DNA of 64,000 nt. It comes from a virus. Of the stretch, positions 6,528 through 56,785 are shown piece by piece. Under the pieces are notes generated by a model. The model was not told where the DNA came from, made no database searches, and saw only the letters and a program-made list of their open reading frames with translations. The position numbers and the translations under genes were made by a program. Positions within the stretch are counted from its first letter, which is position 1; each line of letters opens with the position of its first letter. The stretch spans positions 32,001 through 96,000 of IMG/VR virus record IMGVR_UViG_3300022213_000237; one strand, 5' to 3'.

Positions 6528-6584
6528 TGCTTAAAATTCCTTGTGAGTTTGAGTCGGTGCTCGGTCTATTTGTAACGGGAAGAT

Positions 6585-6773
6585 CTATTTGCATTCACAC
6601 GTGGTCGTGCCGTAAGGACCGGCGTAGCCGCAGGAGCGAACCCCGTTGGAACACACCTCCTTACATTCTTCACACACAGACTTCTTGGGCAGCTTACATG
6701 CGGGCGTACCTCCATCAGGCGCAGTCGACGGCTCCGTCGTAGACAGAAGAGACATAAGCAAAAAGATTTTCAT
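6585..6773 (-). CDS. Small secreted Cys-rich protein
   Basis: Hydrophobic N-terminus, PDGG linker, 7 Cys; GAGGA RBS. Confidence 0.55.
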   Translation of the reverse strand: MKIFLLMSLLSTTEPSTAPDGGTPACKLPKKSVCEECKEVCSNGVRSCGYAGPYGTTTCECK

Positions 6774-7022
6774 GAGTTTTCCTCTTTGGGGAGTACTGAT
6801 TTTTGTAGCGTCGCGATCTTATCCGCTAACACCCAATTCCCTTTTTCAGATATTCGACTTGGCGTCGAAGCTCCGCGTTCTCGCCCCTAGCGGCTCTACG
6901 GTCTTTTTCGGCTTTGAGCTTTGCCGCCGCCCACCTTTCGTTGGCAGCAATCAGCGCGTTCCGTAACCTCTCAATTTCTTTGAGTGCCTCATCAAGAGTG
7001 AGGGGCATGGGGGCTTGTTCTC

Positions 7023-7385
7023 TCACTTTAAGGCTCCGTAAGGAGTAAAGACAGGGCAATAGTCCGTGTGCGTGGGTCCATAGCCGGTGGCGTCGTAATA
7101 ACACCAAAGACAGTGGCCGTTAGAGTCAGGGTGAGCATCCACAGCCTTTGCGGTAGCGGTAACTCCTAAGTCGTAGGCCTCGAGTAAGAGCTGTCTATAC
7201 TTCTTCACTTCGCCTCTCAGCCTTTTAACCTCATTCACCAACATCATCGAATCTTCGCCAGTACATATTTCACAGCGCTCCCAGGGATCGCGCCCATGAA
7301 CGCATTGTAGAGGGGCGGCGTCGTAAGGAATCTCGAAAGCTTCGTTGGCCCGGTCCTGGATTTCTTGTAATTGATCTTCAGTCAT
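7023..7385 (-). CDS. Hypothetical protein with Cys/His metal-binding motifs
   Basis: CVHG...CEIC and CLWC...HTDYCP. Confidence 0.6.
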   Translation of the reverse strand: MTEDQLQEIQDRANEAFEIPYDAAPLQCVHGRDPWERCEICTGEDSMMLVNEVKRLRGEVKKYRQLLLEAYDLGVTATAKAVDAHPDSNGHCLWCYYDATGYGPTHTDYCPVFTPYGALK

Positions 7386-7644
7386 TTTTTAACCACCTGA
7401 CATATCCGTCTTCAATCCAAGTAACCATGTTGTTGCATCCGGGGCATGGCTCAGCAGCATACCCCGTCTTCGTATACCCCGTCTTCGTATACAAAGGCGA
7501 CTTAGGTAATGGATATCCGCACGGCTCCCAAGGGCATCTTGGGGTTCTTTTGCGCTTCTCGCCCAGGACGTGCTCGGCTAGCGCGTATCCAGCACAAAAG
7601 AAGAAAAATGCGAGAATAGGGCCGATAATGATTAGAGGTTCCAA
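7378..7644 (-). CDS. Membrane-anchored Zn-ribbon protein
   Basis: N-terminal TM, CPWEPC/CPGC; contains a 15-bp tandem duplication (YTKTG x2, 7459-7488). Confidence 0.5.
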   Translation of the reverse strand: MEPLIIIGPILAFFFFCAGYALAEHVLGEKRKRTPRCPWEPCGYPLPKSPLYTKTGYTKTGYAAEPCPGCNNMVTWIEDGYVRWLKND

Positions 7645-7690
7645 AAATAACTCCTTGACAATTACAGTGTTTTATGGTTTAGTTGTGAAC

Positions 7691-7966
7691 ATGAAAACTT
7701 ACTTACTGTTGTTTACCGCCTTGATCTCTGCCTGTACCTCCAAGACGCCACGCGTCAAGGAGGTCTGCGACCATCTGGGCGGTAACAAAGAAACCCACGA
7801 TTTCTGTATCAATAAGCTTGGATACATGAAGGAATACGCGCTTTTGCCCACGACTCCAGTAGAGCAAAAAGAGTATTACGACAAATTCATGCGATGCCTC
7901 ATGAAGCAAGACAATTGGGACGAGGCAGGTGAAGTGTGCTCTTCACTTAAGGTCGAAGAACCTTAA
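7691..7966 (+). CDS. Putative lipoprotein
   Basis: MKTYLLLFTALISAC lipobox; TTGACA at 7655-7660 puts the predicted start site on the ATG. Confidence 0.65.
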   Translation: MKTYLLLFTALISACTSKTPRVKEVCDHLGGNKETHDFCINKLGYMKEYALLPTTPVEQKEYYDKFMRCLMKQDNWDEAGEVCSSLKVEEP

Positions 7967-8183
7967 GTGATGCCGTGTTTAGTGTCGTAGTAATTCCACC
8001 AAAGGGTCAGAATGAACGAGTTCAGCCAGACCGATGGTGCGCCCAGTGTTACGCCGTAGATGTGAAAAGGAAACGTATTACAGGCGTGTCCCACAAGAGC
8101 CAGGACCATGAATCGACCCAAAGTTTTTATAGTTTTGTCCATAAGAGCAATATACCTACAGATCAATTCGGTATGAAGGAGAC

Positions 8184-8564
8184 ATGTATGGAATAGCTAA
8201 CAACCTTCCGGTACCATTGCTGCTTGCTATTGAGGATGTGCACGGGGAGCGCGTTTTCACCATAGACGGCAACGGAGCCACGACCTTCGGTCCGCATTAT
8301 GACGAAGACGAAGCCCTGCGCATACTGCGTTCTGTCTTCGGGTTTACATCATCTGATCAATATGTTGATTTTGCTTTTCGAGATGCCGCAAACAATACTT
8401 TAATTGAGTCAAAAACTAGGGGCGAAGTGAGCTTCAGCCCTAAAATCACCGACAGAAGAGTTATTAGTTTATTCCGGCGCATGGCTCACTATGTAGGTAA
8501 GTGTACGTGCGGCGCCGATTCCTGTGGACATCCTAACCATTCGTCTTGGTGCGATAAGGTATAA
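8184..8564 (+). CDS. Hypothetical protein with C-terminal CxCGA...HxxWC tag
   Basis: 126 aa; GATC 19 nt upstream; ends CTCGADSCGHPNHSSWCDKV. Confidence 0.65.
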   Translation: MYGIANNLPVPLLLAIEDVHGERVFTIDGNGATTFGPHYDEDEALRILRSVFGFTSSDQYVDFAFRDAANNTLIESKTRGEVSFSPKITDRRVISLFRRMAHYVGKCTCGADSCGHPNHSSWCDKV

Positions 8565-8566
8565 AC

Positions 8567-8905
8567 ATGGAAGACTTGACTTACGATGATTGGAAAGAAG
8601 ACGGAGTCGCGTGCAGACGCTGTGGCAAGCCCGTTGAAGGCTTAATTTTAAAAACAAATGGTGCGAGCAGCACTCATTTGAGCTTGACCGGCTGCTGCGG
8701 TCCCACAAATGTATTTTACGCCTGGAAAGAAAAATCGAGTCTCCCATCGTTTGATGAGAGCAAAGAACTTGCTTGGATTAATCAGTTGTATTGCCGGCGT
8801 ACAGAGTCTGTGAGTAACGCGCTACCGATGCAGCCAACTACACGTCTTTGTAACTGCCCAATATCGTCGCTAATGGTTTCGGGTTGCCGCTGCGGCGGGA
8901 AGTAG
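8567..8905 (+). CDS. Zn-finger hypothetical protein with C-terminal CxC..L..GC tag
   Basis: CRRC, CC, and terminal CNCPISSLMVSGCRCGGK. Confidence 0.6.
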   Translation: MEDLTYDDWKEDGVACRRCGKPVEGLILKTNGASSTHLSLTGCCGPTNVFYAWKEKSSLPSFDESKELAWINQLYCRRTESVSNALPMQPTTRLCNCPISSLMVSGCRCGGK

Positions 8906-9015
8906 ATCCTACAGTAGAAGAGTGAAGAGCCACCTCGTGGTTGGGGTTGTTGACGGTGTGGGTTCCGAGCCGTGGCTAATTCGGGGCCGTCGATCCACCG
9001 GCTTTATTCAATTTA

Positions 9016-9165
9016 ATGGATAAAGAAAAAGAAATTGAATTAGAATATTTGCGGAGCATTACCCGCTGCAAATATTTATTTATTAATCCGAATTATCCTG
9101 AATTAAATTTAACCATGTGGTGCCCATGCTCCAAGGTCACTGGCCATAAAGATAGATGTGGGTAA
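9016..9165 (+). CDS. Small protein (49 aa) not in the ORF track
   Basis: MDKEKEIELEYLRSITRCKYLFINPNYPELNLTMWCPCSKVTGHKDRCG*; fills the gap between + strand genes. Confidence 0.45.
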   Translation: MDKEKEIELEYLRSITRCKYLFINPNYPELNLTMWCPCSKVTGHKDRCG

Positions 9166-9176
9166 AGGTGGTGCAA

Positions 9177-9548
9177 ATGAATATAGAAGAAGCTACATAT
9201 TTGGACGAAGTGCTGGAAGCCCTCATGCCCTTGCTTACGCCGAGTGAAATACTGGAGTTGCTTGGGAGCGATAACGTGCATCATGTGAGCGCCATGTGTA
9301 GGGGCATGTCGTTTTTAGATCGCTACGAACTCTCATTCCATTGGGCCGAGTTCGAGGCAGCTGTAAGGGCTCTGCTACTGCACCCAAATTGGGGCGTGGT
9401 GATTACGGCCCTGGACACACTGCGAGCCATTAAAGCCTACGATTCTATTACGTTTAAAATGGTTTGCGAACTCGCGAAGTCACCCATTCCCATAGTTGCC
9501 CAAAACGCTGACTATTGGCTTGTGGAAGCACTCGATGACGAGATGTGA
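9177..9548 (+). CDS. HEAT-repeat-like protein
   Basis: LLLHPNWGVVITALDTL and LAKSPIPIVAQNA resemble HEAT helical pairs. Confidence 0.45.
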   Translation: MNIEEATYLDEVLEALMPLLTPSEILELLGSDNVHHVSAMCRGMSFLDRYELSFHWAEFEAAVRALLLHPNWGVVITALDTLRAIKAYDSITFKMVCELAKSPIPIVAQNADYWLVEALDDEM

Positions 9549-9549
9549 A

Positions 9550-9801
9550 TCACTTCTTGAAGTATTTGGAATGACAAGCGGTTCCCACAGGCCAACCGCC
9601 CATATATCCAGGGTCTTCTTCGGGGCTCGACTCGTCTCCCCAGTCTGAACCACCGTTGATGACCACTGCGAAGTGAGGCCACTCCCAAGGTCCGCCCTTC
9701 ACGCCCTTGCCGCAAATAGCGCATGGAGTCTCTCCGTCGACACATTTCCTGCTGTTTTCTCGGTACTTTGGCCCGCTAAAGGGCGGTATCGTGTAGCTCA
9801 T
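9550..9801 (-). CDS. Zn-finger hypothetical protein
   Basis: GGAGG RBS before MSYTIPP; CAICGK ... VGTAC. Confidence 0.6.
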   Translation of the reverse strand: MSYTIPPFSGPKYRENSRKCVDGETPCAICGKGVKGGPWEWPHFAVVINGGSDWGDESSPEEDPGYMGGWPVGTACHSKYFKK

Positions 9802-9811
9802 GTTACCTCCC

Positions 9812-10069
9812 CTAACACTCTCGATCAAGGATTTTTGATTCAGCCAATCGATTCGCGGCTTCACCCTCGGACTCTCCGACACGGGCTCTAACTTCTCGGG
9901 AGTCTGCACACACGATAGCAAGCATCAGGTAGGAGTTTGAGCCATTGGATCGCCGTACTTGGCGTTGGAGTTTTTCCTCAGCTTGTTCCGCAGCCTCAAG
10001 AGAGCGATGACGAGAGATGACTCGGATGCAGGGGAGAGAAGTCTTATTGAGCAGGTAGTAAGTATTCAT
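9812..10069 (-). CDS. Early hypothetical protein (leaderless)
   Basis: ATG 7 nt after the TATAAA of a TTGACT promoter. Confidence 0.6.
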   Translation of the reverse strand: MNTYYLLNKTSLPCIRVISRHRSLEAAEQAEEKLQRQVRRSNGSNSYLMLAIVCADSREVRARVGESEGEAANRLAESKILDREC

Positions 10070-10105
10070 AGTGGTCTTTATACAGGATCTTTTATCGGGA
10101 GTCAA
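10067..10105 (-). promoter_or_regulatory. Sigma70-like early promoter, leaderless
   Basis: TTGACT-CCCGATAAAAGATCCTG-TATAAA-GACCACT-ATG. Confidence 0.75.
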
Positions 10106-10137
10106 GAGTGTCTTGTGTGTGGTTTTTGAATACATGT

Positions 10138-10193
10138 ACGTTACCAAAAGGTAACGTTTTGGAGGATTGGATGTTACCAAAAGGTAACGTTTT
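10138..10193. repeat. Two direct copies of a palindrome (GTTACC-AAAA-GGTAAC)
   Basis: GTTACCAAAAGGTAACGTTTT at 10140-10160 and 10173-10193 (33-bp period), intergenic. Confidence 0.9.
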
Positions 10194-10296
10194 ATCCGTA
10201 CAAAGGGAATCTCTTTGATTAGAAGATCTATTTGTGTCCGGAACGCGGTCGAGGTCGACCTAGCCCCTCAATTCGCGTCTCGGGCATGCGTATGTC

Positions 10297-10512
10297 CTAC
10301 GCAGCCCGCAGGTTAGCTACATCCCATCCACCGTACCAAGCTTCCATGAGCTTAAGCGCTTGGCTTCTTTCCAGACCGTCGGCCTCAAGTCCTTGAACGA
10401 AGGCAACAAACTCGACATCCAGGGCAATGATACGCCTTGCACCGGCCACGAAGGCGTCATGTCCGAATTGAGCTGCTTTTGCTGCGCGAGCATTTCGTTC
10501 GTTGTTGTTCAT
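10297..10512 (-). CDS. Early hypothetical protein (leaderless)
   Basis: MNNNERN...; promoter immediately upstream. Confidence 0.6.
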   Translation of the reverse strand: MNNNERNARAAKAAQFGHDAFVAGARRIIALDVEFVAFVQGLEADGLERSQALKLMEAWYGGWDVANLRAA

Positions 10513-10548
10513 GAGTGTCTTTATATAGAATCCTTTATTCGTTGTCAA
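10510..10548 (-). promoter_or_regulatory. Sigma70-like early promoter cassette
   Basis: TTGACA-ACGAATAAAGGATTCTA-TATAAA-GACACTC-ATG; near-identical to 11832-11870. Confidence 0.8.
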
Positions 10549-10558
10549 CATCCTTTTC

Positions 10559-10723
10559 TTACAAATCTTCGTTCTCATGAACATATTGAGTAAAATCTTC
10601 TGTCGAGCGTCTGGTTTCACCTGCTAACGATTGCGCAAGGCCACGACGTACCGATGAAAGCATATCCGGATATCGCCACCATAACAATAATTCATATAGC
10701 CATATTTTAAGCCGTAGTTTCAT
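10559..10723 (-). CDS. Small protein (54 aa) not in the ORF track
   Basis: MKLRLKIWLYELLLWWRYPDMLSSVRRGLAQSLAGETRRSTEDFTQYVHENEDL*; fills the gap. Confidence 0.5.
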   Translation of the reverse strand: MKLRLKIWLYELLLWWRYPDMLSSVRRGLAQSLAGETRRSTEDFTQYVHENEDL

Positions 10724-10728
10724 TTATT

Positions 10729-11103
10729 TCACCTCCAGACGTGCACTTCCGCATCAGGATAGTTCTTACACGCTTGCAGATACCGTTTAACGAATTCTAC
10801 AAGATTTTCGTAAGTTCCCCAGCCATTTGCCGCATTTAGCTTTTTAAAACGCTCCGGATCCTCTTGAAGCTTTTGAAGCCCCGCAGTCAAAGGCACAATC
10901 AACCGCCTTGCGAACTTCGAATCGTGCTCATTGGGTTGCCACAATATCTCGTAAATACCAGCCTCTTTGGCCATGGGGGCTAGGTTGTGTGTGATGTTGG
11001 CCGAATAGTGTTCGGGACGAGTTTTGGCGGTATGCTTGTGTCCACAGTCGCATACACACTCGACCTCAACTTCCGGTCCTTCAAGGTAGATATCAAGGCT
11101 CAT
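10729..11103 (-). CDS. Conserved phage hypothetical protein
   Basis: MSLDIYL...ANITHNL...NGWGTYE motifs familiar from phage early proteins. Confidence 0.7.
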   Translation of the reverse strand: MSLDIYLEGPEVEVECVCDCGHKHTAKTRPEHYSANITHNLAPMAKEAGIYEILWQPNEHDSKFARRLIVPLTAGLQKLQEDPERFKKLNAANGWGTYENLVEFVKRYLQACKNYPDAEVHVWR

Positions 11104-11612
11104 AAATTATATCTCAATTCCAAGGGCTGCACAACTCTCTTTCATTTCCCGCAGAGACCACTCGTCAATGAGCCTGCTCACCTCAGATTGCAAACCCAAG
11201 GTGTCCGCAAGTTCCCATAAGGCCTTGTTCCTTTCGCGATGAAGGCGGAGATCTCCTCCTCTTAAAGTCTCTTCCGTGAGACTCCGTAGTTGTAGAGCAA
11301 TACCCAATGCTGACTGACGCTTTACCAATAGGGCCTGCCTTTCGAATTCGGAGTAGTCGGTATCGGCTTGACCTCTTCATGCCCGCATTTTTTTAGAAGT
11401 CTTCTTGGGCGGCTTTTCTTTGTCGGCAACACCTAGGTTAACCCTCGACGCAAGATCTTCGTACTTGTTCTTCCAGTAGTGGACGTCGCACAGGTCACCC
11501 TGGTCAATGTACTCCTTGTGGAGATTGAAGGCGAACGAACCGCAACAGGTAGCAAAGAGGTTCCCATTGGCGTCAATATCTGTTTTTCTTTGTTTGCAGG
11601 TTTTCATGGGAA

Positions 11613-11834
11613 TTATCCAATGGCGACAATGTGAACAGACCAGACACCTGTAATGCAGCCCAGCATAAAACACCAGTCTTCGGCGGCCTCGCGGGTGGAG
11701 AACATCTTAATTCCGGCGCTTGAAAGAGTATCGACGTTCTTGCGTCGGCCCACGTACTTGCCGTCTGCCAGGAGGATGACGTATCGAGCGTAGTTCCCGT
11801 TCTCTTCGTTTGTATGGAGTTCAGTTCGTTTCAT
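11613..11834 (-). CDS. Early hypothetical protein (leaderless)
   Basis: MKRTELHTNEEN; N-terminus shared with 11875..12141. Confidence 0.6.
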   Translation of the reverse strand: MKRTELHTNEENGNYARYVILLADGKYVGRRKNVDTLSSAGIKMFSTREAAEDWCFMLGCITGVWSVHIVAIG

Positions 11835-11870
11835 GGGTACCTTTATACAGAATCCTTTATTCGTTGTCAA
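11832..11870 (-). promoter_or_regulatory. Sigma70-like early promoter cassette
   Basis: TTGACA-ACGAATAAAGGATTCTG-TATAAA-GGTACCC-ATG. Confidence 0.8.
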
Positions 11871-11874
11871 GGGC

Positions 11875-12141
11875 CTACTTAGTTACGGTTGCGATAAAAG
11901 CTCTAGGGTCTTTAACTTCCCCCGTGTTTCCCCACCTGTTCTTGATGACCTCTGTTCGGCCAGACCGCAGGTGGACACAAACTACAAGATTTGCCATCTG
12001 GACAGTCTCATATTCTGAGAGCCAGTAGAACGGAGTGTCAGAGCGGTCTTGCTTCCATGTGCAGTTCTTCTCGATCACGGTCCCGTCATGCATCACGGCG
12101 AGCACCCTGTAGTCGTTCTCTTCGTTTGTGTGTCGTTTCAT
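11875..12141 (-). CDS. Early hypothetical protein
   Basis: MKRHTNEEN; preceded by a truncated cassette TTGACAACGAATAAA that lacks the -10. Confidence 0.6.
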   Translation of the reverse strand: MKRHTNEENDYRVLAVMHDGTVIEKNCTWKQDRSDTPFYWLSEYETVQMANLVVCVHLRSGRTEVIKNRWGNTGEVKDPRAFIATVTK

Positions 12142-12176
12142 GGTTGCTTTTTATTCGTTGTCAAGCATGTTCCCTT

Positions 12177-12632
12177 TTAATCGTCGTGTGCGAAATCGTT
12201 AGCCGCTCTTTCTCCGGCGGAGTCGTCGAGTTCACCTTGTAGGCGTTTGATTTCGTTCTGTAGCGCTTCAATAAAAGCTCTAAGGGCTTGGACCTCGGAC
12301 TCCAGGTCCGTGAAGCGATTTTCTAAGACGGTAACGGGTGACGCCACCGGTTCCTGCCTTCTTTGTAAGTATTGGTCAATATTGAATTTGTAAGTATTGT
12401 ACGCGGTCTGTGTGACAAAACGGGGATTCATGGTACCGTTGTAGACGTGACCGATTTGGGTCACGCCAATACCACGGAAGGTACGGGTGTAGCCGTCGAT
12501 TTCTTTCAAGGTGTAAGAAACTGAATTGTTGGATGTAGTGTCTACGCTACTCACTTTAAACCAGCCGGAAGCGTTAGTCATGTCGCCCGTGTAGTAGATC
12601 TTGTCGTTGATTGCGATTTTGTTGTCGTTCAT
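12177..12632 (-). CDS. Early hypothetical protein with C-terminal coiled coil
   Basis: Start MNDNK after TTGCCA-N18-TATAAA-GGTACCC. Confidence 0.65.
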   Translation of the reverse strand: MNDNKIAINDKIYYTGDMTNASGWFKVSSVDTTSNNSVSYTLKEIDGYTRTFRGIGVTQIGHVYNGTMNPRFVTQTAYNTYKFNIDQYLQRRQEPVASPVTVLENRFTDLESEVQALRAFIEALQNEIKRLQGELDDSAGERAANDFAHDD

Positions 12633-12674
12633 GGGTACCTTTATACGGTATCGCGTAGATCTTTGGCAAGCCCC

Positions 12675-12680
12675 AATCTT
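12675..12680 (+). promoter_or_regulatory. Putative late promoter box AATCTT
   Basis: AATCTT-N6-ATG, same spacing at 15762 and 47015. Confidence 0.65.
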
Positions 12681-12686
12681 TACGGC

Positions 12687-14312: not shown

Positions 14313-14328
14313 GGAGTTCCCAGTGGTT

Positions 14329-15728: not shown

Positions 15729-15773
15729 AAAGTCACTATACCATGAGATCTACGCGACCACAATCTTGACGTC

Positions 15774-18463: not shown

Positions 18464-18487
18464 GGCTTTAGTACGCTCTAAAACGCC

Positions 18488-20630: not shown

Positions 20631-21906
20631 TCAAGGGAAATAAAGAACGGGTTTATCTTCATTGGGATCTTTTATACGATTCAGCTCTTGAACCCATTCA
20701 TTTAGCGTCTTATCTGCTTGGATAACGTTGATGTCGATTAACTCCGGAGCATCTACATCCAGCGCTTTGCGTTGTTCGACCAATTGTTGGATGTCGTAGC
20801 TCAGACCCTCTCGGTCATCGGCATCGAGGTTTTTCCATTGGAGCATTCCCGCCGCGATTCGCGCCACTGCCATCGGGTAGTTCGTAACGAACGTTAAGGT
20901 ATTCAAGGGTAATAACCCTTTAAACCTGGCGGGCGCTCAAGGCCCTCAAAGCGGACGGCGCGAACAAGCTTTAAATCCTCAAGACCTGTCACAATAACGG
21001 TTTCTAATACTTGGCCGGTTTCATCGAGCGGGAAGAATTCATTGTGATTGGTCATGAGCAGGAATTTCATGTACTCGCTTTCGACCTCGTACACAGAGTA
21101 GACCCCGTCGTTGACGAGACACTTGACTTCGTACGGCAGCTTGTACAGACCCTCGTTCATGGTTCCTTGCCCAGTGCTTCTTCAGCGGCATCACTCAAGA
21201 TAGAATCAACACTCTCTATTGCGTCTTCAAGGGAGGTGAATCCGTCAATAACGTTCATTACCGTGATGGCGTACTGTCTCATCATTTCTTTCTGGGTTTT
21301 GGTAAGGTTTTCGGTCATGCGAAGAAGATGTTCGTTCAGTAGCGTACGCGCTGCGGCTAGGCGTTGTTCTATGTAGTAGTATTTTCGGGGCATTAGAGAC
21401 CTTTCAAGACCGGTACAGGATCTTCACCGCGCATGGCTATAGCCACAGACGCATAGGCCCGTACAATCTCTCGATTCTTAAGCTTACTCTTAACAGGTAG
21501 GGTCGCGGTCAGTACGGCAATAAGGAATTCAGCCGATGCACGCTCTAGGCGAAAATCATTAAGAAGAACATCAACCCCCTCAAATTCTCCGTTCCTTAAC
21601 AGAGGATCGATGAGATTGTAGACTTCTTGAATAGCTTCGTCAGTTTTACCGTCTCTATCCAACCCCAGGGCAGGAACCCACGACACACAATGTTCTAGCT
21701 TATCCACCGTTAATCTCCGTATTTAGAATTTCTTCCAAATCTCGTAAATCCTTGGTCACAGTTTCTAGTTCCAGCACTTCTCGAGCAACTTCGAGTGGCA
21801 TAGTTTGTTTTTCAATCCACGCAGCAAAATTGCTTCCAATTACTAAGTTCTGAACCATAAGGCGAGCCCTTTGGACCGTCTCATACCAACCATCTATTTT
21901 AGCCAC
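20631..21906 (-). other. Run of five small translationally coupled hypothetical genes (20631-20906, 20903-21160, 21157-21393, 21393-21707, 21700-21906)
   Basis: Overlapping stop/start codons, same strand. Confidence 0.65.
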
Positions 21907-46054: not shown

Positions 46055-46087
46055 AATGTTCCTTATAGCAGATCTAGATCCAGAAAG

Positions 46088-46639: not shown

Positions 46640-46689
46640 GTGGATAGTTATACACTTAAACAGATCCGCATGTCAAGGCCTAAAACGAT

Positions 46690-46938: not shown

Positions 46939-47026
46939 ATTTATCCTTTTTATTCAATAGCTTATTGTCTGCCAGCTTAGTCTTGTACCTTTATCGGCAG
47001 ATCTTGTCAACCACAATCTTGACATC

Positions 47027-49480: not shown

Positions 49481-49486
49481 ACTGAG

Positions 49487-50041
49487 TTACGGTTGTGGTA
49501 CGACTCGGTCGACGAAACCACGTGCTAGCGCTTCATCCCAATTCATCCACCACTGGAGACCGCCCACCGTGTTGGCATGCGCTTCTTCAAACGAGGCGTT
49601 TGTTCGGTGGATAGTGTGTTCGAGGAGGGCACGGTTGAGCGCCTTCATCATGGCCACCACCGCTTGCCAATTATTGGGATTACCTTCCATTACACCCGAA
49701 AGCGAAATCTCATGCGCCATTAACGTTGAGCGTTTGGTCATCAAACGGACGTCACAGCTTTGGAGGATGTATAAGGCCATGGACGCGGCCATGCCATCAA
49801 CCACGCACGCGACCGTGCCATCATGCTGTTCGATTGCTTTCGAGAGGGCGAGACCTGCGGGTACTGAACCACCGGGGGAGTCGATTACGATTACGACGTT
49901 ACCGGGAGACTCAAGGGCTTCGATTAGAGGGTCTACAGATTCGTCTGTGACCACGGTATCTAGGCTAAGGTAGTTTGTTTGATTGGCGTGGGCTGGTGTC
50001 GTACACGCGAACAGGAGCAGTAGGGCAAAGAGCTTTCTCAT
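49487..50041 (-). CDS. ClpP-like serine peptidase with signal peptide/lipobox
   Basis: IDSPGGSV, GMAASMA (Ser), LMAHE (His), EALARGFVD; N-terminus MRKLFALLLLFAC. Confidence 0.8.
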   Translation of the reverse strand: MRKLFALLLLFACTTPAHANQTNYLSLDTVVTDESVDPLIEALESPGNVVIVIDSPGGSVPAGLALSKAIEQHDGTVACVVDGMAASMALYILQSCDVRLMTKRSTLMAHEISLSGVMEGNPNNWQAVVAMMKALNRALLEHTIHRTNASFEEAHANTVGGLQWWMNWDEALARGFVDRVVPQP

Positions 50042-50493
50042 CTAGATGGAGATTGTGGCTCGATCTGGGCCTTAATCTCGGCTTTGCCCCTGCCAGCTAG
50101 AGAATCCGCCCTTTCGTTCCAGGTGTTCCCCTGATGCCCTCGTACCCATCGGGTCCGGACTTTTAGTTCGTCGTGCAGGTAACGTATTCGTTCCGCCAAT
50201 TCCAGATTAGCAGAAGGCGTGTATCCTCCAGATGCCAGGCCTAAAACATACTGAGAGTCGGACACCAACTCGATCATTTCTTCGGGCCCAATTTCGCCAA
50301 AGGCTTTGCACAATATCACCGCCTCAAGACCCTTAATTGCGGCAGTTAACTCCATGCAATTATTAGTGGTTTTTGGATCTCCACCGTAGTCCGCGTACAG
50401 CACCTGGGTCTCGTCTCGCACCATCACCCAGGCCCAACCTCCAGGCTTACCACCCCGAGAGGAGCTACTGCCGTCAGAATATACGGAAATCAT
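50038..50493 (-). CDS. rnhA: Ribonuclease HI
   Basis: YSDGS, TTNNCMEL, SDSQY, WVRGH, NERAD. Confidence 0.9.
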   Translation of the reverse strand: MISVYSDGSSSSRGGKPGGWAWVMVRDETQVLYADYGGDPKTTNNCMELTAAIKGLEAVILCKAFGEIGPEEMIELVSDSQYVLGLASGGYTPSANLELAERIRYLHDELKVRTRWVRGHQGNTWNERADSLAGRGKAEIKAQIEPQSPSR

Positions 50494-50500
50494 AAGAGTA

Positions 50501-51323
50501 TTACTGGTTTTCGCGCATCCACAACGTGCCCCCGTCATACTTAACAATACCCAAAAAACGCAAATTCTCTGGATCAAAACTTTCCCCAGACGAGTATCGG
50601 TGAAGCGTTATTGTCTCCGTCTCACTTAATTCACCTAACGGTACGAGCACAATCAGACACAAAAAGGAATCAAACATAGATTCTACTGTGTGCATCTCCA
50701 AGACTTTGCTTCCTTTTGGAAGGTCCAATTTGGTCTCCGACGCCATTGGTTGTGGCAGCCGGTAAGTAAAAATTGTATGTTCAGCCATACTCCGTAATAG
50801 CTAGGCGATCGCCTTGCGACTCACGATCCAAAACTGCTGTTCAATTTGGATGACATCGCCGTCGTCCATGGTGTCGAAGATGTAGCGTTCGCACATTTGC
50901 AAATCCACCGGCTTCTCGTTCTTCTGGAAAAATTGCTGGAGCATGCGATAAAGTTCCTGGACGGTATCCTCTTTGCTCCATCCACACTCTTCGTTCAGGT
51001 GCTTAAATCGAGCCGCGTACTCGCTTTTAGAGACCAAGTCTCGGACATAAAGGTCGTACGTTCCATTATCCCTACGCTTGACAAGGTATTGAGAGGTCAT
51101 ACTTCATTATTATCAAAAACCATAACTACTGTCAATACATGGCCTCTTCGTATATCTCATCCAGAGAATCAACTTCAGCGATTCTACGGTCAGAAACCTT
51201 ATTTTGTTTACGCATTTCGGCCTGATGCTCAAGCAGACACTCTTGTGCTTCATCGCGTGTCTCGTGTTCGTGTTCACAGCAATCAAGGCCTTTGGACGTG
51301 AATTTTCCTACGGTAATGAACAT
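50501..51323 (-). other. Three small hypothetical genes (50501-50788, 50801-51100, 51132-51323)
   Basis: Packed ORFs; GATC-class promoter for 50788, TTGACA-class promoter for 51100. Confidence 0.6.
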
Positions 51324-51327
51324 AATT

Positions 51328-52584
51328 TCAACGGCGTTTCGGGTTTGTGAAACCAAGCTCCTCGTCTTTGGGTTGCCACACAATAGATACATTCTCTTTT
51401 GCTCTAGTCACGGCAGTATAAATCCATCTTCTACCTTCTAGCGTGAAGGGTTGGACCGAGCGCTCAATGACCACGAGCACGTCGCTATATTCCGAGCCCT
51501 GACACTTATGCGCAGTCAACGTGTATCCGAACGAACAATGCAAATACGGAATGTCTCTACCGATTTTGAAGTTACTTACTAATTCTAGGGCGGCGATTCC
51601 TACGTTTTCGCATCGACCAAAGACTGCTTGCGGTGATAGCGAGCACTCTTGGCCCTCAACAAGTCCGACACCAAACGACGAAGAAGTTTCCTGCTGCTTC
51701 CAGTGGTCCCAGACCTTCCACTGCTGGCCGGGGCTGCGCTTCCATTCGTCGAATCGCAGTACTTCGCCATTGAAGCGCTGTAACTGATAGCTGTTGCGCA
51801 ATACCAACAAAGGCTCGCCGTCGTGTAGACTTCGGTCACTTAATTTTTTGTGCTCGCGAATTCTTCGGTTGAGTTCGAGGCGGGAGCTGTTGCGATGACA
51901 AATAGCTACCCCATTTTTAGGTAATATCTCTAAATGCTTTTCCAGCATTTTATCTGTCGAAACTCGGGGCAGCTCCATGACGGCATCAAGGACGTTGCCT
52001 TCTCGTAGTCTCGCTCCCGCACGAATAATAGGGCTTTCTAGCGCTTGGCGTGTAATTTCGGTCAAATCGGATTGAAGGTCGAAGGTGAAGTCCGGAAGGA
52101 GCAGACCAAATGGTTCACTGCTGTCGGTTTGAACCGGTGGCAATTGGAAAGAGTCTCCGACGCAAAGAATATGGCAGTCCAAATTCTTGGCCACGTCAAC
52201 AATATCTTCCCACACTTGAAGACCTACCATCGAAGCTTCTTCTACGACTATCAGACCGCTGTCGGGACGTTCGATATCGTCAACCCCCTTGCGTTGATAA
52301 CGTATTTCGCCAGACAGTGGATCTTGCTTGGGAAGATAGATGAAGCTGTGAATTGTTCGAGCCGGTAGTCCCGTAGCTTCTGTAACACGTACGGAAGCTT
52401 TACCCGTGGGAGCAATGATAGCCATTTCGCCAATTTCGTGCCCGAAGACCCGAATCATGGACGTCTTTCCTGTGCCAGCGGGTCCGCGTAAGACCCCAAT
52501 TTTAGGACGGTCGTGAGGAAGCTTTACGAGCTTCTTGACCATGGCCAGAGCTTCGTGTTGGCCCTTTGTTAGCTCGAAACTCAT
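51328..52584 (-). CDS. SF1 RecD2/Dda-like helicase
   Basis: GPAGTGKT, APTGKA, TIHS, EEASMV, GDSFQLPP, EITRQ, TAHKCQGSEY, YTAVTRA. Confidence 0.9.
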   Translation of the reverse strand: MSFELTKGQHEALAMVKKLVKLPHDRPKIGVLRGPAGTGKTSMIRVFGHEIGEMAIIAPTGKASVRVTEATGLPARTIHSFIYLPKQDPLSGEIRYQRKGVDDIERPDSGLIVVEEASMVGLQVWEDIVDVAKNLDCHILCVGDSFQLPPVQTDSSEPFGLLLPDFTFDLQSDLTEITRQALESPIIRAGARLREGNVLDAVMELPRVSTDKMLEKHLEILPKNGVAICHRNSSRLELNRRIREHKKLSDRSLHDGEPLLVLRNSYQLQRFNGEVLRFDEWKRSPGQQWKVWDHWKQQETSSSFGVGLVEGQECSLSPQAVFGRCENVGIAALELVSNFKIGRDIPYLHCSFGYTLTAHKCQGSEYSDVLVVIERSVQPFTLEGRRWIYTAVTRAKENVSIVWQPKDEELGFTNPKRR

Positions 52585-52733
52585 AGATCTACCCAGACAG
52601 GGTGACCGCAACGAGCACAGTTGAAGTCTTCTGGATCTTCATTAAGGTAATGACCTCTAAAGAGGCAAATCAAACGGCGCCAAAGGCTAAATGAGGTGGC
52701 TTCTTCCACCACCCCATTTAGCAGTTAGATCGT

Positions 52734-53714
52734 TCACGCGATACGCGTCATTTGCATCACGGTCTGGAACGCTTGAGCCTTCATGGCCACTCCGGAACCA
52801 AACCAGGCGGAGGTAGCGCGAGTAGATTCTGCGGTAGCGTCATTGAAGGTACGGGTGCCGCGCTCGTAGTCAACGAACTCAACGACGGCGTTCAGTCCTG
52901 CCCAAGCCGTCCCGACTATGCCTGATTCCTGGTGACCGCGACCTTGAGTAAACAGTTCCACCACTTTCTCGCGATTGGATTCAGTCCTTCCCGACAGCTC
53001 TTTCGTTTCCCCGCTTTCATCTACTTTATTGGGGAACACCGTGGCGGCAAGTTCCTTCATCTGATTATCAGAGAATGGGGTCCGCGCCATCTTGTCGGCG
53101 AGAATCTCGAATTGAGAGTAATAGCTGTTGGCCGCGCCCAGTGACTTGCGAGCCTCATTTAGCTTATTCATTCCCTTCACGGTGTGACGGATTGCAACCG
53201 ATTCGCGAAAGCGATTCATCACGGCCCGGATTTGGTTAGAGCAATACAGGCGGAAGGGTGAGAACAGGGACCGGTACATCTGGCTTCCATCGTGTGAATT
53301 GATGATGGTGAGAAACTTGGCGACTTCGTCACCCGTGGGTCCGATTTTCATCCTCCCAGGTAATTCAAGCGAGAAGAAGGTGGCTGCGCCGCCATTAAAG
53401 GTGCCGGCTCGAATCATCTTGCACCCGCCTTCGTTCACAAAGTCTTCGACGATAGCCAGTGCGTCACGGTTCTGGAACGGTTGGTACTTGGCGCCGACAA
53501 TACCTAGGGGTGCAAGCGTGTCGGTGCGGACGATGGTTTTGAAGTCTGGAACCTCGACAATACGGTCTCCGACCATGGTTTGCACCGGGCCGGGCGCCAC
53601 ATTCCAGTCGAGTCCAGCCATACTTATAGCCGTTTGAAAGTCCCCGGCTTTGCTGATGTCTTTACCAAAGCCGCCTAAGCGGGGTCCAAGTTGGGTGAGA
53701 GTTTGCTTCTGCAT
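52734..53714 (-). CDS. DUF932-family phage protein
   Basis: AGLDWNV, YQPFQN, NSHDGS, RLYCSN, IRHT, TAWAGLNAVVEFVD. Confidence 0.85.
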   Translation of the reverse strand: MQKQTLTQLGPRLGGFGKDISKAGDFQTAISMAGLDWNVAPGPVQTMVGDRIVEVPDFKTIVRTDTLAPLGIVGAKYQPFQNRDALAIVEDFVNEGGCKMIRAGTFNGGAATFFSLELPGRMKIGPTGDEVAKFLTIINSHDGSQMYRSLFSPFRLYCSNQIRAVMNRFRESVAIRHTVKGMNKLNEARKSLGAANSYYSQFEILADKMARTPFSDNQMKELAATVFPNKVDESGETKELSGRTESNREKVVELFTQGRGHQESGIVGTAWAGLNAVVEFVDYERGTRTFNDATAESTRATSAWFGSGVAMKAQAFQTVMQMTRIA

Positions 53715-53812
53715 TGTGTTCTCCTATTTTGCTGCGGTTGATGTTCCTACTTATACAGTACCGTTTAAGTGCTGTCAAGTGGATTGTTTTAACCGTGCAA
53801 TATAGAAGTAAC

Positions 53813-54118
53813 TTAGCGGCCCGAGGGAGTCTCTGGATCCGGCATTAAAGCTTGTTGTTTTTTGACTGTGGGTTTCGGTGGAGACTCTTCTTGTGGCCCG
53901 TTTTTAGCCGACATCCATTTGACGGCGGCGTTCCCTGAAACGTACAGACCAGCGGCGCCAAGCAGGAACATAAACAACTCTGCCAGAGTCACAGCCAAAG
54001 CAGGATATTTGGCCGTAAGTAACCACGCACCTAGACCTAAAATCATGACGATGTACGCCATGACGAGCTTCCTGCTCTTGTATCCACCGTCTCTTCGGTC
54101 CATTTTTATGATGTCCAA
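53813..54118 (-). CDS. Holin-like two-TM membrane protein
   Basis: KSRKL followed by two TM segments and a charged tail; in an AATCTA-driven operon. Confidence 0.5.
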   Translation of the reverse strand: MDIIKMDRRDGGYKSRKLVMAYIVMILGLGAWLLTAKYPALAVTLAELFMFLLGAAGLYVSGNAAVKWMSAKNGPQEESPPKPTVKKQQALMPDPETPSGR

Positions 54119-54462
54119 CCCACGAGCTTCGCGATACTGGCCGCAATGCCAACCAAGACACCTATGAAGGTCATAATTTTTGCGATTGCTCCCACCACAG
54201 CCACATGAGTGGAGATGGGTTTGACCTCGCTTCGAATTTGTTCGAGATGTTGTTCTACTTCGTGACGAAAGGCGTCAAAATGTTGACTGACTTCGGAACG
54301 GTGCTGTTCAAGATTTGCTTCCTGAGTGTCAGACCTTTTGATATGATGTTCGAGCTGAACCGCTTGTCGACCTAGCGTCTTGTCTACACTAGCAAGATGC
54401 TCTGACTGTTTGTCGATTTTAGCTTCTAGGCGGATAACGATGTCTTTGAGCGGGCTCTTCAT
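54106..54462 (-). CDS. Coiled-coil protein with C-terminal TM (XhlA/holin-associated type)
   Basis: Heptad repeats then a hydrophobic C-terminus. Confidence 0.5.
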   Translation of the reverse strand: MKSPLKDIVIRLEAKIDKQSEHLASVDKTLGRQAVQLEHHIKRSDTQEANLEQHRSEVSQHFDAFRHEVEQHLEQIRSEVKPISTHVAVVGAIAKIMTFIGVLVGIAASIAKLVGWTS

Positions 54463-54475
54463 CGGCTACCTCCCC

Positions 54476-54781
54476 TTAGAACCAATTCCAGGTACGAGCG
54501 TACATGTCGGTTTGTTCGTTCTGGGTGAGCATCGCGTTCTGAGCCACGGTGTACGCACTGCAATTGTAGAGCGATAGGAGGCTCTCGAGTCGGACAGTTA
54601 GAACCGTAGCGGAAACGATTTCATCGATAATCAATTCCACGGCATCGGTGTTGTCGTCTCTCAAAAAAACACGGGCACCCTTACGAAATCCAGCAGTTGA
54701 AGCAAAAGTTAATCGACCGTTTGATCCGCCATCAACGCTTAATGCTGTACTCTGATAAGGGGTTTGAAGATCTGTCGCCAT
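54476..54781 (-). CDS. Small virion protein, short paralog of 17816..18463
   Basis: MATDLQ.PY...QTDMYARTW.WF shared; AATCTA at 54820-54825 on -. Confidence 0.7.
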   Translation of the reverse strand: MATDLQTPYQSTALSVDGGSNGRLTFASTAGFRKGARVFLRDDNTDAVELIIDEIVSATVLTVRLESLLSLYNCSAYTVAQNAMLTQNEQTDMYARTWNWF

Positions 54782-54847
54782 AGAGAGCCTAACTCCGGTG
54801 AGTTACAATTGTCACCGTGTAGATTACCGCTCTCCAATTTTGCTCAA

Positions 54848-55348
54848 TTACCGGCGTTTCAGGCCGCGTTTCTTCTTAAGTTTAAGCGCCTTGGGTGCAT
54901 CAGGACCCAAAGTCTTCTGGAGTTCAGTTCGTACCAATCCAGGAACGATGTCGAGCCCTTTAGTCAGAGTCTTTTTAGCCTCATGTCGCGCCACGATCCC
55001 AATTTGATTGGCTATTTTAGCTTCCTGCATGAACTTCTCATCTTCGTCAATCCTGTCTGTCTTTTGATGAAGTTGCGATTCAATGCCCAATAATTTATTG
55101 GCCTGGTCAACAGAGTGGGCGTGAAGTCCGTTCACTCTACCCTCCAGCACCACCAGCTGGCCGCGCATTTCCCCAATACGTTGCCCCAATGACCCGAAAA
55201 GTTGAATAATTTGGTCGATCTTTGCGACTTCGTCTGCGTCCCGCGCTTTGCGGGAACAGTAATTTGGGAAAATTTTCATCAACAAACGGGACTTGACGCC
55301 AAGCATTAAATTGAAGAGATTAAGGATAAAAAGTTTGATTTTAGTCAT
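54848..55348 (-). CDS. Coiled-coil hypothetical protein
   Basis: GATC 19 nt upstream of ATG. Confidence 0.55.
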   Translation of the reverse strand: MTKIKLFILNLFNLMLGVKSRLLMKIFPNYCSRKARDADEVAKIDQIIQLFGSLGQRIGEMRGQLVVLEGRVNGLHAHSVDQANKLLGIESQLHQKTDRIDEDEKFMQEAKIANQIGIVARHEAKKTLTKGLDIVPGLVRTELQKTLGPDAPKALKLKKKRGLKRR

Positions 55349-55369
55349 AGACTCTAATTAGCTGGGAGA

Positions 55370-55933
55370 TCATGTTTGTTGGTCAGTTACTGATGCGGTG
55401 CTCCAATAGTCTTCTCCAAACCATATTTTCCACTCAGCGGGCATCCACGGCTTGTAGCGTAGGCCCTTACGGAAATTCTCTGGAAGACTGTCGGGTTTGA
55501 TTGGTTTGGAACGCAGTCTCATTCCCGCTTCTTGTGGTGTGCGGTCTCTCTTTTTGCCGTTACACTCTACACAGGCAACAACTATGTTGTCCCAAGTTGT
55601 TTTGCCGCCACGAGATTTTGGGATAACGTGGTCGTAAGTGTAGGTGGATCGAGGTACATCTCGTCCGCAGTACTGACACTTCCCAAAATCTCGAGCCCAT
55701 ATGTGGTCTCGTGAAAATTTGAGTGCTTTCTTTTTGGTCTTGCTAAACTTCACGTGGCGAACCACCGAGGGCATACGGTGAGTGGCGTTAGCCGACCGCA
55801 CCACCCTGTCTTCGTAAGTGGATATTATTTCTACTCGTTCCGAGGCCTGCTCCGAATAGAGCTTAATGAATGCGTCTTTCCAGGATACGATATTTACAGG
55901 CTGATAGGCGCTGTTAAGCACTAACACGTCCAC
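55370..55933 (-). CDS. HNH endonuclease (McrA-like)
   Basis: VLVLNSAYQP, RDFGKCQYCG, DHVIPKSRGG, NIVVACVECN. Confidence 0.9.
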   Translation of the reverse strand: MDVLVLNSAYQPVNIVSWKDAFIKLYSEQASERVEIISTYEDRVVRSANATHRMPSVVRHVKFSKTKKKALKFSRDHIWARDFGKCQYCGRDVPRSTYTYDHVIPKSRGGKTTWDNIVVACVECNGKKRDRTPQEAGMRLRSKPIKPDSLPENFRKGLRYKPWMPAEWKIWFGEDYWSTASVTDQQT

Positions 55934-55975
55934 GACGCAACGCCCTTTCTTGAGTGTGTATCCAGGTTTAGTAGC

Positions 55976-56236
55976 TTATTGATCTATAATCAATTCGTAG
56001 GTGCTATTTTCTGTATTGAATACGATTCGTTGTCCGTTATGTGAAGTGATTTGCTTCACTGGAGAGGTTACCACGACACGAGCCCCTACTCCCGTCAGAG
56101 GCTGATCATTAGCCAGTTGAAATGGCCAACCCACTTTTGGTTCGATCAAAAACGAACCACGCACAGAAGCGGTTCGCAACGGGTTGGCGCTTTTGGCTTC
56201 GGTGATGTTCCCGAGCTTGGTGAGTGTGCCAATCAT
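55976..56236 (-). CDS. Hypothetical protein
   Basis: TSPV...FNTENSTYEL phage motif. Confidence 0.55.
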   Translation of the reverse strand: MIGTLTKLGNITEAKSANPLRTASVRGSFLIEPKVGWPFQLANDQPLTGVGARVVVTSPVKQITSHNGQRIVFNTENSTYELIIDQ

Positions 56237-56688
56237 TTGGTGCCGCTGCTCCCGAATCCGCCAGAACCTCTTTGAGTATCAGAGAGTTCCACAACTTCTT
56301 CGACAATGGGCTGAATCACGGGCGCGATCACCAACTGGGCGATTCTATCTCCATCAGAAATAACAACCGGTTCTGTTCCAGTATTCTGAAGGATTACGCA
56401 TACTTCGCCTCTGTAATCGCTATCGATGGTGCCGGGACTGTTGAGAACCATCAGACCTACCTTGAGAGCTAGACCGCTACGCGACCGCACCTGCGCCTCG
56501 TAGCCTGGTGGGATTTCGATGGCGATGCCAGTGGGGATAAGAGCGCGGTTAAAGGCTCTTATCTTCACCTCTTCGTATAAATTTGCGTGAAGGTCCATCC
56601 CCGCGCTACCAGGAGTAGCGTATTGGGGGATTTTGGCTTTTTCTGTCAAGCGTTTAATCTTTACTATGGGTCGTGTATTTATTGTCAT
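56233..56688 (-). CDS. dut: Trimeric dUTPase
   Basis: AGMDL, RSGLA, GTIDSDYRGE, RIAQL, RGSGGFGSSG. Confidence 0.95.
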   Translation of the reverse strand: MTINTRPIVKIKRLTEKAKIPQYATPGSAGMDLHANLYEEVKIRAFNRALIPTGIAIEIPPGYEAQVRSRSGLALKVGLMVLNSPGTIDSDYRGEVCVILQNTGTEPVVISDGDRIAQLVIAPVIQPIVEEVVELSDTQRGSGGFGSSGTK

Positions 56689-56785
56689 ATTTTATCCACT
56701 GGCACTTCATATCGGATTGATCTACCAAGCATAATCTTGAATACGTGGAAGGTGTGCAAAACCCACCACATACTAAGGATAATTC

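Follow-up and report, generated by a model that had tools for sequence, protein, structure and literature searches.

The middle and late promoters of the Thermus phages phiYS40 and P23-45, which are their non-early classes, are leaderless, and the activator Lpa of phage P1 acts at an element near -22. In phage T4 the early promoters are of host type, the middle promoters carry a MotA box near -30 in place of the -35 element together with a sigma-70-like -10, and the late promoters are served by a sigma factor without -35 reading (gp55), the -35-dependent early promoters being shut off as the middle ones are turned on. The 11 late promoters of P1 have in common a 9-bp inverted repeat that is bound by Lpa (PMC10695390), and in Deinococcus a -10 box adjoining an open reading frame (ORF) yields leaderless mRNA experimentally (PMC12340547). 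Here we describe a GATC box that stands at a fixed distance before start codons in a 64,000-nucleotide stretch of virus DNA (the window), namely bases 32001-96000 of the single 169,567-bp contig of IMG/VR record IMGVR_UViG_3300022213_000237, which derives from a sediment metagenome and is complete by CheckV; positions preceded by w are those of the window, and those called genome positions refer to the contig. The nearest named relative is Myxococcus phage Mx1 (OR576727, 169,621 bp), which shares 189 reciprocal-best protein pairs with this genome at a median identity of 48%. We consider it rather probable that the box is part of a compact, phage-specific promoter lacking a -35 element, which would be read by a phage factor and give leaderless messages from non-structural genes of Mx1-like myxophages.

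Comparison with the described systems shows likenesses to each of them and clear departures. As in the Thermus phages and Deinococcus (for the latter, PMC12340547), a -10-like element precedes the start by 5-7 nt without -35 element, leader or Shine-Dalgarno (SD) sequence, but here GATC is placed 6-7 nt upstream of the TA, only G-14, C/G-13 and TA are kept and the T at -7 is missing, the host (at least that of Mx1) belongs to the phylum Myxococcota and GATC also marks the spacers of early promoters. As with P1 Lpa, whose single activator serves about a dozen promoters, a phage-specific element replaces the -35 upstream of a -10; however, the P1 promoters have a 9-bp inverted repeat, a canonical -10 and leaders, whereas here 4 bp are invariant, the flanks in Mx1 are asymmetric and the -10 is non-canonical. 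The T4 programme resembles the cascade proposed below both in its three classes and in its early shut-off, although our box lies near -21 rather than -30, its -10 is degenerate and the predicted transcripts are leaderless. Since the position, sequence and symmetry of the box differ, the -10 is non-canonical and no homologue of MotA or AsiA was found in searches whose control genomes lack these families, the box promoter is not a member of the T4 middle, P1 late or Thermus/Deinococcus leaderless classes. It is most likely undescribed, no published description of it having been found in the literature searched; the Mx1 genome paper is an announcement without promoter analysis, and a myxophage preprint from 2026 does not mention promoters.

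Geometry, frequency and conservation of the GATC box

The refined motif reads (a/t)GATC-N4/5-G-(C/G)-TA-N9/10-(c)ATG. In this genome (a/t)(a/t)GATC is followed by four or five loosely constrained bases, G (25/27), C (15/27), TA, N10 and ATG, with C at -1 in 17/27; the Mx1 form is aGATC-aaC-..-G-G-TA-N6-GGC-ATG, in which TA lies one base nearer the ATG. With the A of ATG as +1, GATC occupies approximately -23 to -19, G -14, C/G -13, TA -12/-11 and a pyrimidine -1, the box being centred near -21. The position of the -7 T shows no conserved base (T in 8/27 sites here and 9/30 in Mx1), and no -35-like conservation can be seen in the base profile of the 12 nt that precede GATC (27 sites of this genome, 30 of Mx1), this stretch being the coding end of the preceding gene in about 40% of sites. 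The palindrome is limited to GATC itself, with asymmetric flanks in Mx1 (aGATCaaC), and the G/C-TA part is present on both sides in just two of about 100 GATC sites.

A first-pass annotation of the window had listed 19 GATC/start-codon pairs with a gap of 18-20 nt, equivalent to 22-24 nt from the G of GATC to the A of the start codon. All 19 are present, and their layout is as it described, GATC-N6/7 being followed by TA in 17/19 and by AA in 2/19, with a G two bases upstream of TA in 16/19; one of them, at w52709, is doubtful, as it is a GTG opening just 42 codons. Its five leadered copies could likewise be located, its estimate of one or two hits by chance was roughly correct, and three leaderless-spaced sites can be added to its list (w8142, w29773 and w43672, all on the minus strand). 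The positional peak that it proposed is borne out across the whole genome against several controls. With a crude gene call using first-ATG starts, GATC is found at -24 to -22 before 30/188 genes, where about 1.5 are expected per offset. Taking every first-ATG ORF of at least 50 aa in six frames of the whole genome, with gene models left untuned, offsets 22-24 hold 37 copies of GATC against 5.3 expected from offsets 30-69 (Poisson p 3e-19), and GATC ranks first there of all 256 four-letter words. In the template W-N6/7-TA-N9..11-ATG, with each four-letter word in turn as W, GATC scores 32 against a mean of 2.2 (sd 2.6) across the 256 words, the runners-up being overlaps of GATC, while dinucleotide-preserving shuffles yield 0.08 matches to the fixed pattern GATC-N5-G-N-TA-N10-ATG, of which the window has eight. 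Intergenic enrichment among four-letter words is also highest for GATC (1.9x), despite its overall under-representation (0.8x). The peak recurs in Mx1: 34 copies of GATC stand at these offsets where 8.9 are expected, 32 fit the template where the words average 1.7, and GATC heads both rankings. The observation is therefore real and far above chance.

The box class is confined to non-structural genes and absent from structural genes. It comprises about 30 genes, among them replication, nucleotide and RNA-repair genes and many small genes, and many of its members stand in tight same-strand arrays. In the window the minus-strand boxes lie at w15726-15750 (N6/TATAGT/N6-ATG, 122-aa ORF, within a 45-nt divergent gap), w20368-20392 (leaderless-spaced, 101-aa ORF), w22523-22549 (AA replacing TA, 208-aa ORF), w23175-23200 (overlapped by the TGA stop of the upstream gene, 208-aa ORF), w24700-24725 (without G at -14, 61-aa ORF), w29771-29795 (leaderless-spaced and one of the three additions, 57-aa ORF), w30935-30960 (263-aa gene, "Thg1-like" in the first-pass annotation), w32071-32095 (177-aa gene, there called "HD-domain"), w36708-36733 (81-aa ORF), w37969-37994 (AA replacing TA, 80-aa ORF), w39720-39745 (51-aa ORF) and w40932-40958 (AAA ATPase gene, 396 aa). 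They continue at w42190-42216 (192-aa ORF), w43273-43298 (N7/TAGAAT/N6-ATG, 101-aa ORF), w43670-43695 (another addition, 88-aa ORF), w45380-45404 (300-aa gene, labelled "AAA" in the same source), w45525-45549 (45-aa ORF), w50786-50810 (95-aa ORF), w52707-52731 (the doubtful GTG start of 42 codons) and w55346-55371 (166-aa ORF). Leadered copies on this strand are found at w6525-6585 (GATC-N7-TA, 45 nt to ATG), w6771-6818 (GATC-N7-TA followed by the SD-like AGAGGA), w55931-55984 (187-aa ORF) and w56686-56722 (21-nt leader, in a divergent gap facing a 1874-aa late gene); on the plus strand a GATC-N6-TA box without adjacent start codon occupies w8905-8920.

One further pair of sites shares its box. 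At w8161-8186 (+) a leaderless-spaced box (N7/TA/N10), with AAGGAG also present, precedes a 126-aa ORF, and from the same GATC (w8161-8164) a box in the opposite direction (w8140-8164, -, N6/TA/N10) precedes a 59-aa ORF. The single GATC thus stands between divergent leaderless-spaced ORFs 41 nt apart and is flanked by a GGTAT inverted repeat, an arrangement found at only two GATC sites of the genome; w8140-8186 may be a bidirectional box.

The distribution of the box among orthologues combines conservation with rapid change. For the 189 ortholog pairs of this genome and Mx1 the box is present in both members of 6, in one only of 8 and 5 respectively, and in neither of 170 (Fisher p 2e-5), most box genes being small and without an ortholog in the other genome. 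Sharing above chance, coupled with a presence that is mostly single, indicates that the element is conserved at some genes but turns over quickly. Metagenomic relatives were sampled as six 21-kb loci, three around the sigma factor gene (L014-L016) and three around the AAA ATPase gene (L017-L019), the Mx1 record being L001-L003. In the first three, which consist of long operons with few promoters, the box is seen at some orthologous genes and an offset histogram was unusable. Around the AAA ATPase ortholog the GATC-N6/7 peak is absent from the three loci, and each has instead a compact box of its own with the same start-codon geometry: tGAT(T/C)CGTTACAG-N7-ATG in L018 (7/8 copies, GATT and GATC mixed), yCGTTATAGG-N8-ATG in L019 (6/11) and tGATTCGCTATC-N7/8-ATG, elsewhere given as GATTCGCTATC, in L017. 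The equivalents in these distant relatives can be summarised as GATTCG(T/C)TA or CCGTTATAGG, neither of which is a Dam site. The fourth box base may be T or C and hence the palindrome is not needed family-wide. A promoter of the respective local type is retained before the AAA ATPase gene itself in Mx1, L018, L019 and this genome.

Probable promoter function and the predicted transcript start

Several independent features of the sites make it very likely, as far as sequence can indicate, that the box belongs to a promoter with a leaderless start. GC-rich hairpins with a T-run (-20 to -34 kcal/mol) end at GATC at Mx1 positions 21191, 42788, 70196 and 96421 and at genome position 15573, which places the signal for restarting transcription within the 22-23 bp before the ATG. 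The upstream stop codon overlaps or touches GATC (TGAtc, TAGatc) at 13/33 sites here and 14/32 in Mx1, leaving no room for further-upstream promoter information except inside coding sequence. The 45-nt divergent gap w15728/w15774 holds both the leftward box and a rightward CAATCTTG, other divergent gaps being built alike, and the box also precedes tRNA genes, namely tRNA-Tyr, tRNA-Ala and tRNA-Met of Mx1 (21-27 nt upstream) and tRNA-Pro here. At the core spacing the start codons ATG:GTG:TTG number 27:3:1 in this genome and 30:1:0 in Mx1, and ATG is used at 57/62 core-spacing sites compared with 12/22 at neighbouring spacings. A pyrimidine is found at -1 in 79% of box sites against 53% of others here, and in 94% against 46% in Mx1. 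Together the terminators, stop overlaps, 45-nt gap, tRNAs, ATG bias and pyrimidine -1 argue for a promoter from which transcription would start on the AUG.

The translation signals of the box genes are in keeping with such a start. SD-like words are present in 18% of box genes as opposed to 39% of other genes here, and in 9% against 36% in Mx1, the comparison set being the other conserved genes, and the arrangement TA-N9/10-ATG places a -10-like element 5-7 nt before an AUG that lacks an SD, the hallmark of a leaderless gene. The earlier proposal of a -35-less promoter class that sets the predicted +1 on the start codon is accordingly supported, if indirectly, by terminators, gaps, start codons and SD depletion. 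The canonical promoters of this phage, which set the ATG 6-7 nt past the -10 in 15/35 cases, and the -10 box of Deinococcus (PMC12340547) point the same way. We infer that the GATC box would form the upstream half of a compact promoter, and that the RNA would begin at the start codon and be translated without leader or ribosome-binding site.

A strict distance to the start codon would also be expected of a signal that acts in RNA, such as a processing site or a translation-initiation signal within polycistronic transcripts, for example one directing an endoribonuclease to trim the message to the AUG, and the many box genes in tight same-strand arrays could fit this. A GAUC near the 3' end of 16S rRNA would moreover be a self-complementary partner for the word; SD-like pairing with the 16S 3' end is ruled out by the place of the word, which is 18-20 nt away from the AUG and on the wrong side for an SD. 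We give very little credence to a motif of the RNA. The box directly follows intrinsic terminators, lies in divergent gaps where an upstream transcript cannot arrive, precedes tRNA genes and has leadered copies with a separate SD, while the GATC of early promoters is upstream of the predicted start and so outside the RNA. In addition, A at +1 behind a pyrimidine at -1 is what marks a transcription start.

The predicted leaderless transcripts would all begin with A, usually preceded by C. Among the annotated proteins of Mx1 are a nicotinamide phosphoribosyltransferase, an NMN adenylyltransferase, a phosphopantetheine adenylyltransferase and a giant NUDIX protein, and capping of the predicted A-initiated RNAs with NAD or dpCoA is conceivable.

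Early promoters, the late-type motif and the proposed factor that reads the box

The genome also carries promoters of the sigma-70 type. In the window TTGAC-N17-TATAA occurs eight times against 0.11 expected, and genome-wide the start codon follows 6-7 nt past the -10 in 15/35 such sites. The sigma-70-type promoters of this phage are predicted to be leaderless too, and their -10 reads TATAAA or TATAAG, without T in the last position. In Mx1 the corresponding promoters take the form TTGACW-N17-TAnnnT with T at -7 in 21/22, and have SD leaders of 20-30 nt. In w36001-56000 a scan with generic consensus sequences counted 13 sigma-70-like sites against 19.7 and 27 terminators against 21, neither being an excess, the generic consensus requiring the T at -7 that this phage's promoters lack.

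The strongest new result is the presence of GATC within the spacers of these early promoters. It is found in the spacer of 35/45 TTGAC-N16-18-TAnnnT promoters of Mx1 against 2.4 expected (p 2e-28), being by far the commonest spacer word there, and in 10/33 promoters of this genome against 2.1 expected; in the distant relative L018 both such promoters carry two copies each. Its distance to the TA varies (3, 6/7, 10 or 12 nt). The first-pass annotation had pointed to eight TTGAC promoters of the window with GATC inside or beside them, all of which are indeed there. On the minus strand GATC-bearing promoters are TTGACT-N17-TATAAA-N7-ATG at w10067-10105 (GATC in the spacer 3 nt before TA), a hybrid at w12630-12661 in which GATC-N7-TA overlaps a TATAAA -10 lying 7 nt before the ATG, TTGACA-N18-TAGAAA-N6-ATG at w20596-20634 (GATC adjoining the -35), TTGACT-N17-TATAAA-N6-ATG at w27371-27408 before a 775-aa helicase gene (GATC in the spacer and a second just upstream), TTGAC-N..-GATC-ctg-TATAAC-N6-ATG at w28863-28901, TTGACT-N17-TATAAA-N6-ATG at w37468-37505 (GATC in the spacer), TTGACA-N17-TAGAAA-N6-ATG at w42815-42852 (two GATC in the spacer), TTGACT-N18-TATAAG-N7-ATG at w46052-46091 (again two) and TTGAC-N..-TATAAC-N7-ATG at w46637-46676 (one, before a 183-aa ORF). 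Sigma-70-type promoters without GATC include a leaderless-spaced one at w10510-10548 (-) and others with TTGAC at w11870, w23930, w29801 (+), w31356, w44176 and w51135, four of which span w11832-11870, w23892-23930, w44139-44176 and w51098-51135.

A factor bound anywhere between -35 and -10 would block a canonical promoter, while activation needs a fixed geometry, and the two arrangements of GATC therefore fit a single factor acting as repressor and activator. The suggestion that the factor reading the box also represses early promoters, originally made in passing, gains real support from the spacer counts in the two genomes. We propose that the same factor would shut the early promoters through the GATC of their spacers while turning on the box promoters. 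More tentatively, since we regard it as possible but not probable, a small early phage protein might toggle transcription genome-wide, blocking about 35-45 early spacers and recruiting polymerase, 6-7 bp from G-N-TA, at about 30-40 AUG-start promoters; in a variant of this scheme the dilution of host methylation would set the timing.

The simplest alternative to a phage factor is that the box sites are ordinary host extended -10 promoters, at which the host sigma needs no help to read G-14 and TA, and GATC, as a spacer element, strengthens these and the canonical promoters alike, with no temporal class involved. G-14, T-12 and A-11 do resemble an extended -10, the G occurring at 25/27 sites of this genome and 20/30 of Mx1, even though the hexamer past TA is degenerate; GATC occurs in most canonical early promoters, which have only host polymerase to rely on when infection begins; the canonical -10 boxes of this genome lack the T at -7 as well; and in Deinococcus the -10 box alone suffices for leaderless transcription (PMC12340547). 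We nevertheless judge this unlikely. No conservation is seen of T at -15, and in Mx1 the T at -7 separates the box sites (9/30) from the sigma-70-type promoters (21/22; p 2e-6), which makes the host primary sigma acting alone an unlikely reader, at least of the Mx1 box sites. GATC takes several positions in early spacers, unlike a fixed polymerase contact, and the sequence of the box shifts by lineage (GATC, GATTCG, CCGTTA) though Mx1-like phages should meet similar host polymerases. The absence of the class from structural genes weighs against this alternative as well. A phage-specified factor acting with host core RNA polymerase would thus be the preferred reader of the box sites, rather than the unaided host primary sigma.

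One recognisable sigma factor is encoded by this phage, at genome 139647-140702 (+), and is 58% identical to a putative sigma factor of Mx1. Its sequence matches are weak (PF04542 at E 0.003, below the cut-off of that family; phrog_351, 'RNA polymerase sigma factor', at 8.7e-7; RpoD/SigA among PDB sequences at 7e-5), and the structural match is clearer, as the top Foldseek hits of its model (pLDDT 83) are all sigma-A chains of holoenzymes; regions 2 and 3 can be assigned on these grounds. The protein stops two helices (residues 316-346) past a disordered linker, and its C-terminus LSLFERKLLTLKG resembles region 4.1 only. By secondary structure, rather than by residue-level alignment, it appears to be devoid of the -35-reading region 4.2. 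In region 2.3/2.4 the protein presumably departs from the E. coli sigma at several aromatic and polar positions, which gives no more than a lead. GATC-N7-TA and an SD stand upstream of the sigma operon, and because this operon sits behind a GATC box itself the phage sigma more likely serves the late motif cAATCTT than the box.

This late motif, (g/c)cAATCTT(g/t), is found before plus-strand structural genes here, in Mx1 and in L014-L016, several times 5-6 nt from the ATG and once 10 nt before a tRNA-Tyr at genome 15822. Aligned as a hexamer, AATCTT retains A at -11 and T at -7. In the window CAATCTTG occurs four times against 2.55 expected, which is no enrichment by bare count, the support being positional and comparative only. 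Examples on the plus strand are CAATCTTG-N5-ATG at w15761-15776 (510-aa gene, sharing its 45-nt gap with the box at w15726-15750) and at w47014-47029 (817-aa baseplate gene), AATCTTG at w56733-56739 upstream of the 1874-aa gene, and a further late-type motif at w17341-17347. Others are at genome positions 44, 5106, 9637, 24989, 146298 and 165649, and in Mx1 before 7617, 8615, 28851, 36563, 39319, 75289, 121405 and 130008. On these grounds we envisage a cascade in which early transcription by host sigma would be followed by box transcription with an early factor, and a box promoter would then drive the operon of a phage sigma that lacks the -35-reading region and serves cAATCTT for late transcription. 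That the box genes form a middle regulon read by a phage factor, as first put forward, is in part upheld by their confinement to non-structural genes and by the missing -7 T in Mx1; middle timing and a phage-encoded reader are both plausible.

A candidate for the reader is a 73-aa ORF at genome 124198-124419 (-), which has a weak Sigma70_r4 hit (PF04545, E 0.01-0.04) with a region-4.2-like helix-turn-helix pattern. The protein is highly conserved, with 12 close homologues in addition to Mx1, and is found only there; its model (pLDDT 69) has no significant structural match. To judge from these sequence features, the protein might supply the other part of a split sigma, or mimic it. A 540-aa plus-strand ORF at genome 112564-114186, tried as a second sigma, was set aside, as it gave no sigma signal in Pfam or PDB sequences. 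A T7-type RNA polymerase had no family match, a weak negative as the control genomes are without this family.

A number of results weigh against our interpretation of the box as a promoter with its own phage reader. MotA (PF09114) and AsiA (PF09010) are unmatched, although this too is weak as the control genomes lack these families; a second sigma was not found; and the first proteins behind 11/14 early promoters belong to no DNA-binding family in Pfam or PHROGs. With 521 copies of GATC in the genome a 4-bp word is a weak specificity determinant, and its variable distance in early spacers is easier to understand as repression or a position-free mark than as a single docking geometry. In this genome the canonical -10 ends in A or G, so that the missing -7 T separates the two classes only in Mx1. 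Turnover of the box between the two phages is high, and 6/33 box genes here do have SD-like words.

Some early transcripts of Mx1 share a further feature. Those at 103645, 101524, 91480, 89727, 87134 and 93465 (minus strand; L002/L003) have a predicted common leader of approximately CTACCTCGAACAC(A/G)GGAG, the first bases of which can pair with the SD region, and this suggests a common 5'-UTR hairpin that might regulate translation in Mx1.

Methylation, relatives and genome context

Single promoters with GATC inside the promoter core are regulated by Dam in Dam-containing hosts, as for IS10 pIN, Mu mom and P1 cre. The present case differs in that about 30 box promoters and many early promoters (35/45 in Mx1) carry GATC, no methylase was found in the phage and relatives use GATT. 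An epigenetic switch has nevertheless to be considered, in which GATC would act as a Dam site, fully methylated on entry, and under-methylation after rapid replication would turn the early promoters off and the box promoters on. The word is a Dam site, its variable place in early spacers suits a position-free mark, and partial GATC m6A (31.9% of sites) has been reported for Myxococcus hansupus (PMC4765838); a host may methylate the word. Such a switch seems to us decidedly improbable. A six-frame translation of the complete genome yielded no match to PF02086 or PF05869 (Dam), PF01555 (N6/N4) or PF00145 (C5), relatives with the same geometry carry GATTCG or CCGTTA boxes that are not Dam sites, L018 mixes GATT with GATC, and the flanks of GATC in Mx1 (aGATCaaC) are asymmetric. 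Gating by adenine methylation, which had been raised as part of the original proposal together with a search for a Dam-family methylase gene, is thus unsupported. Instead, we propose that a protein would read GATC as base sequence and not as a methylation mark.

If confirmed, these assignments would be of use beyond the present genome. Mx1 infects the model bacterium Myxococcus xanthus and can be cultivated, yet the literature searched offers its genome announcement but no study of its transcription. Three promoter classes, sigma-70-type early, GATC-box and cAATCTT late, can now be read from sequence, giving for this clade, which has hundreds of metagenomic relatives, a map of the whole infection programme that can be tested. 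With GATC marking both the promoters to be shut off and those to be turned on, and the word shifting by lineage, the clade may offer a natural system for the retargeting of host RNA polymerase without a -35, and it bears on the spread of leaderless translation outside Actinobacteria and Deinococcus-Thermus. At a practical level start-codon calls can be corrected and small genes predicted by means of the box, and the 23-bp promoters could provide compact parts for myxobacterial genetics.

Searches for further members of the clade returned 353 homologues of the phage sigma, many on 160-180 kb contigs, and IMG/VR scans based on either the sigma alignment or the AAA ATPase found no close relatives. 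GATC is over-represented 2-3x in some relatives (193-226 copies per 21 kb; L014, L018 and L019 compared) and under-represented here (0.8x) and in Mx1 (about 0.67x), the genomes that use it as a promoter word, a pattern that L014 fits poorly. The termini of the contig (1-100 and 169467-169567) repeat each other over about 100 nt, and the late-type motif at position 44 recurs at 169467; with its ends repeated the assembly is circular or terminally redundant, although it is classed as linear in the collection. Within the phage tRNA cluster ARAGORN calls one tRNA without determined identity at genome 16214-16285 (+). This genome has 13 tRNAs, and Mx1 has 37 by ARAGORN compared with 22 annotated.

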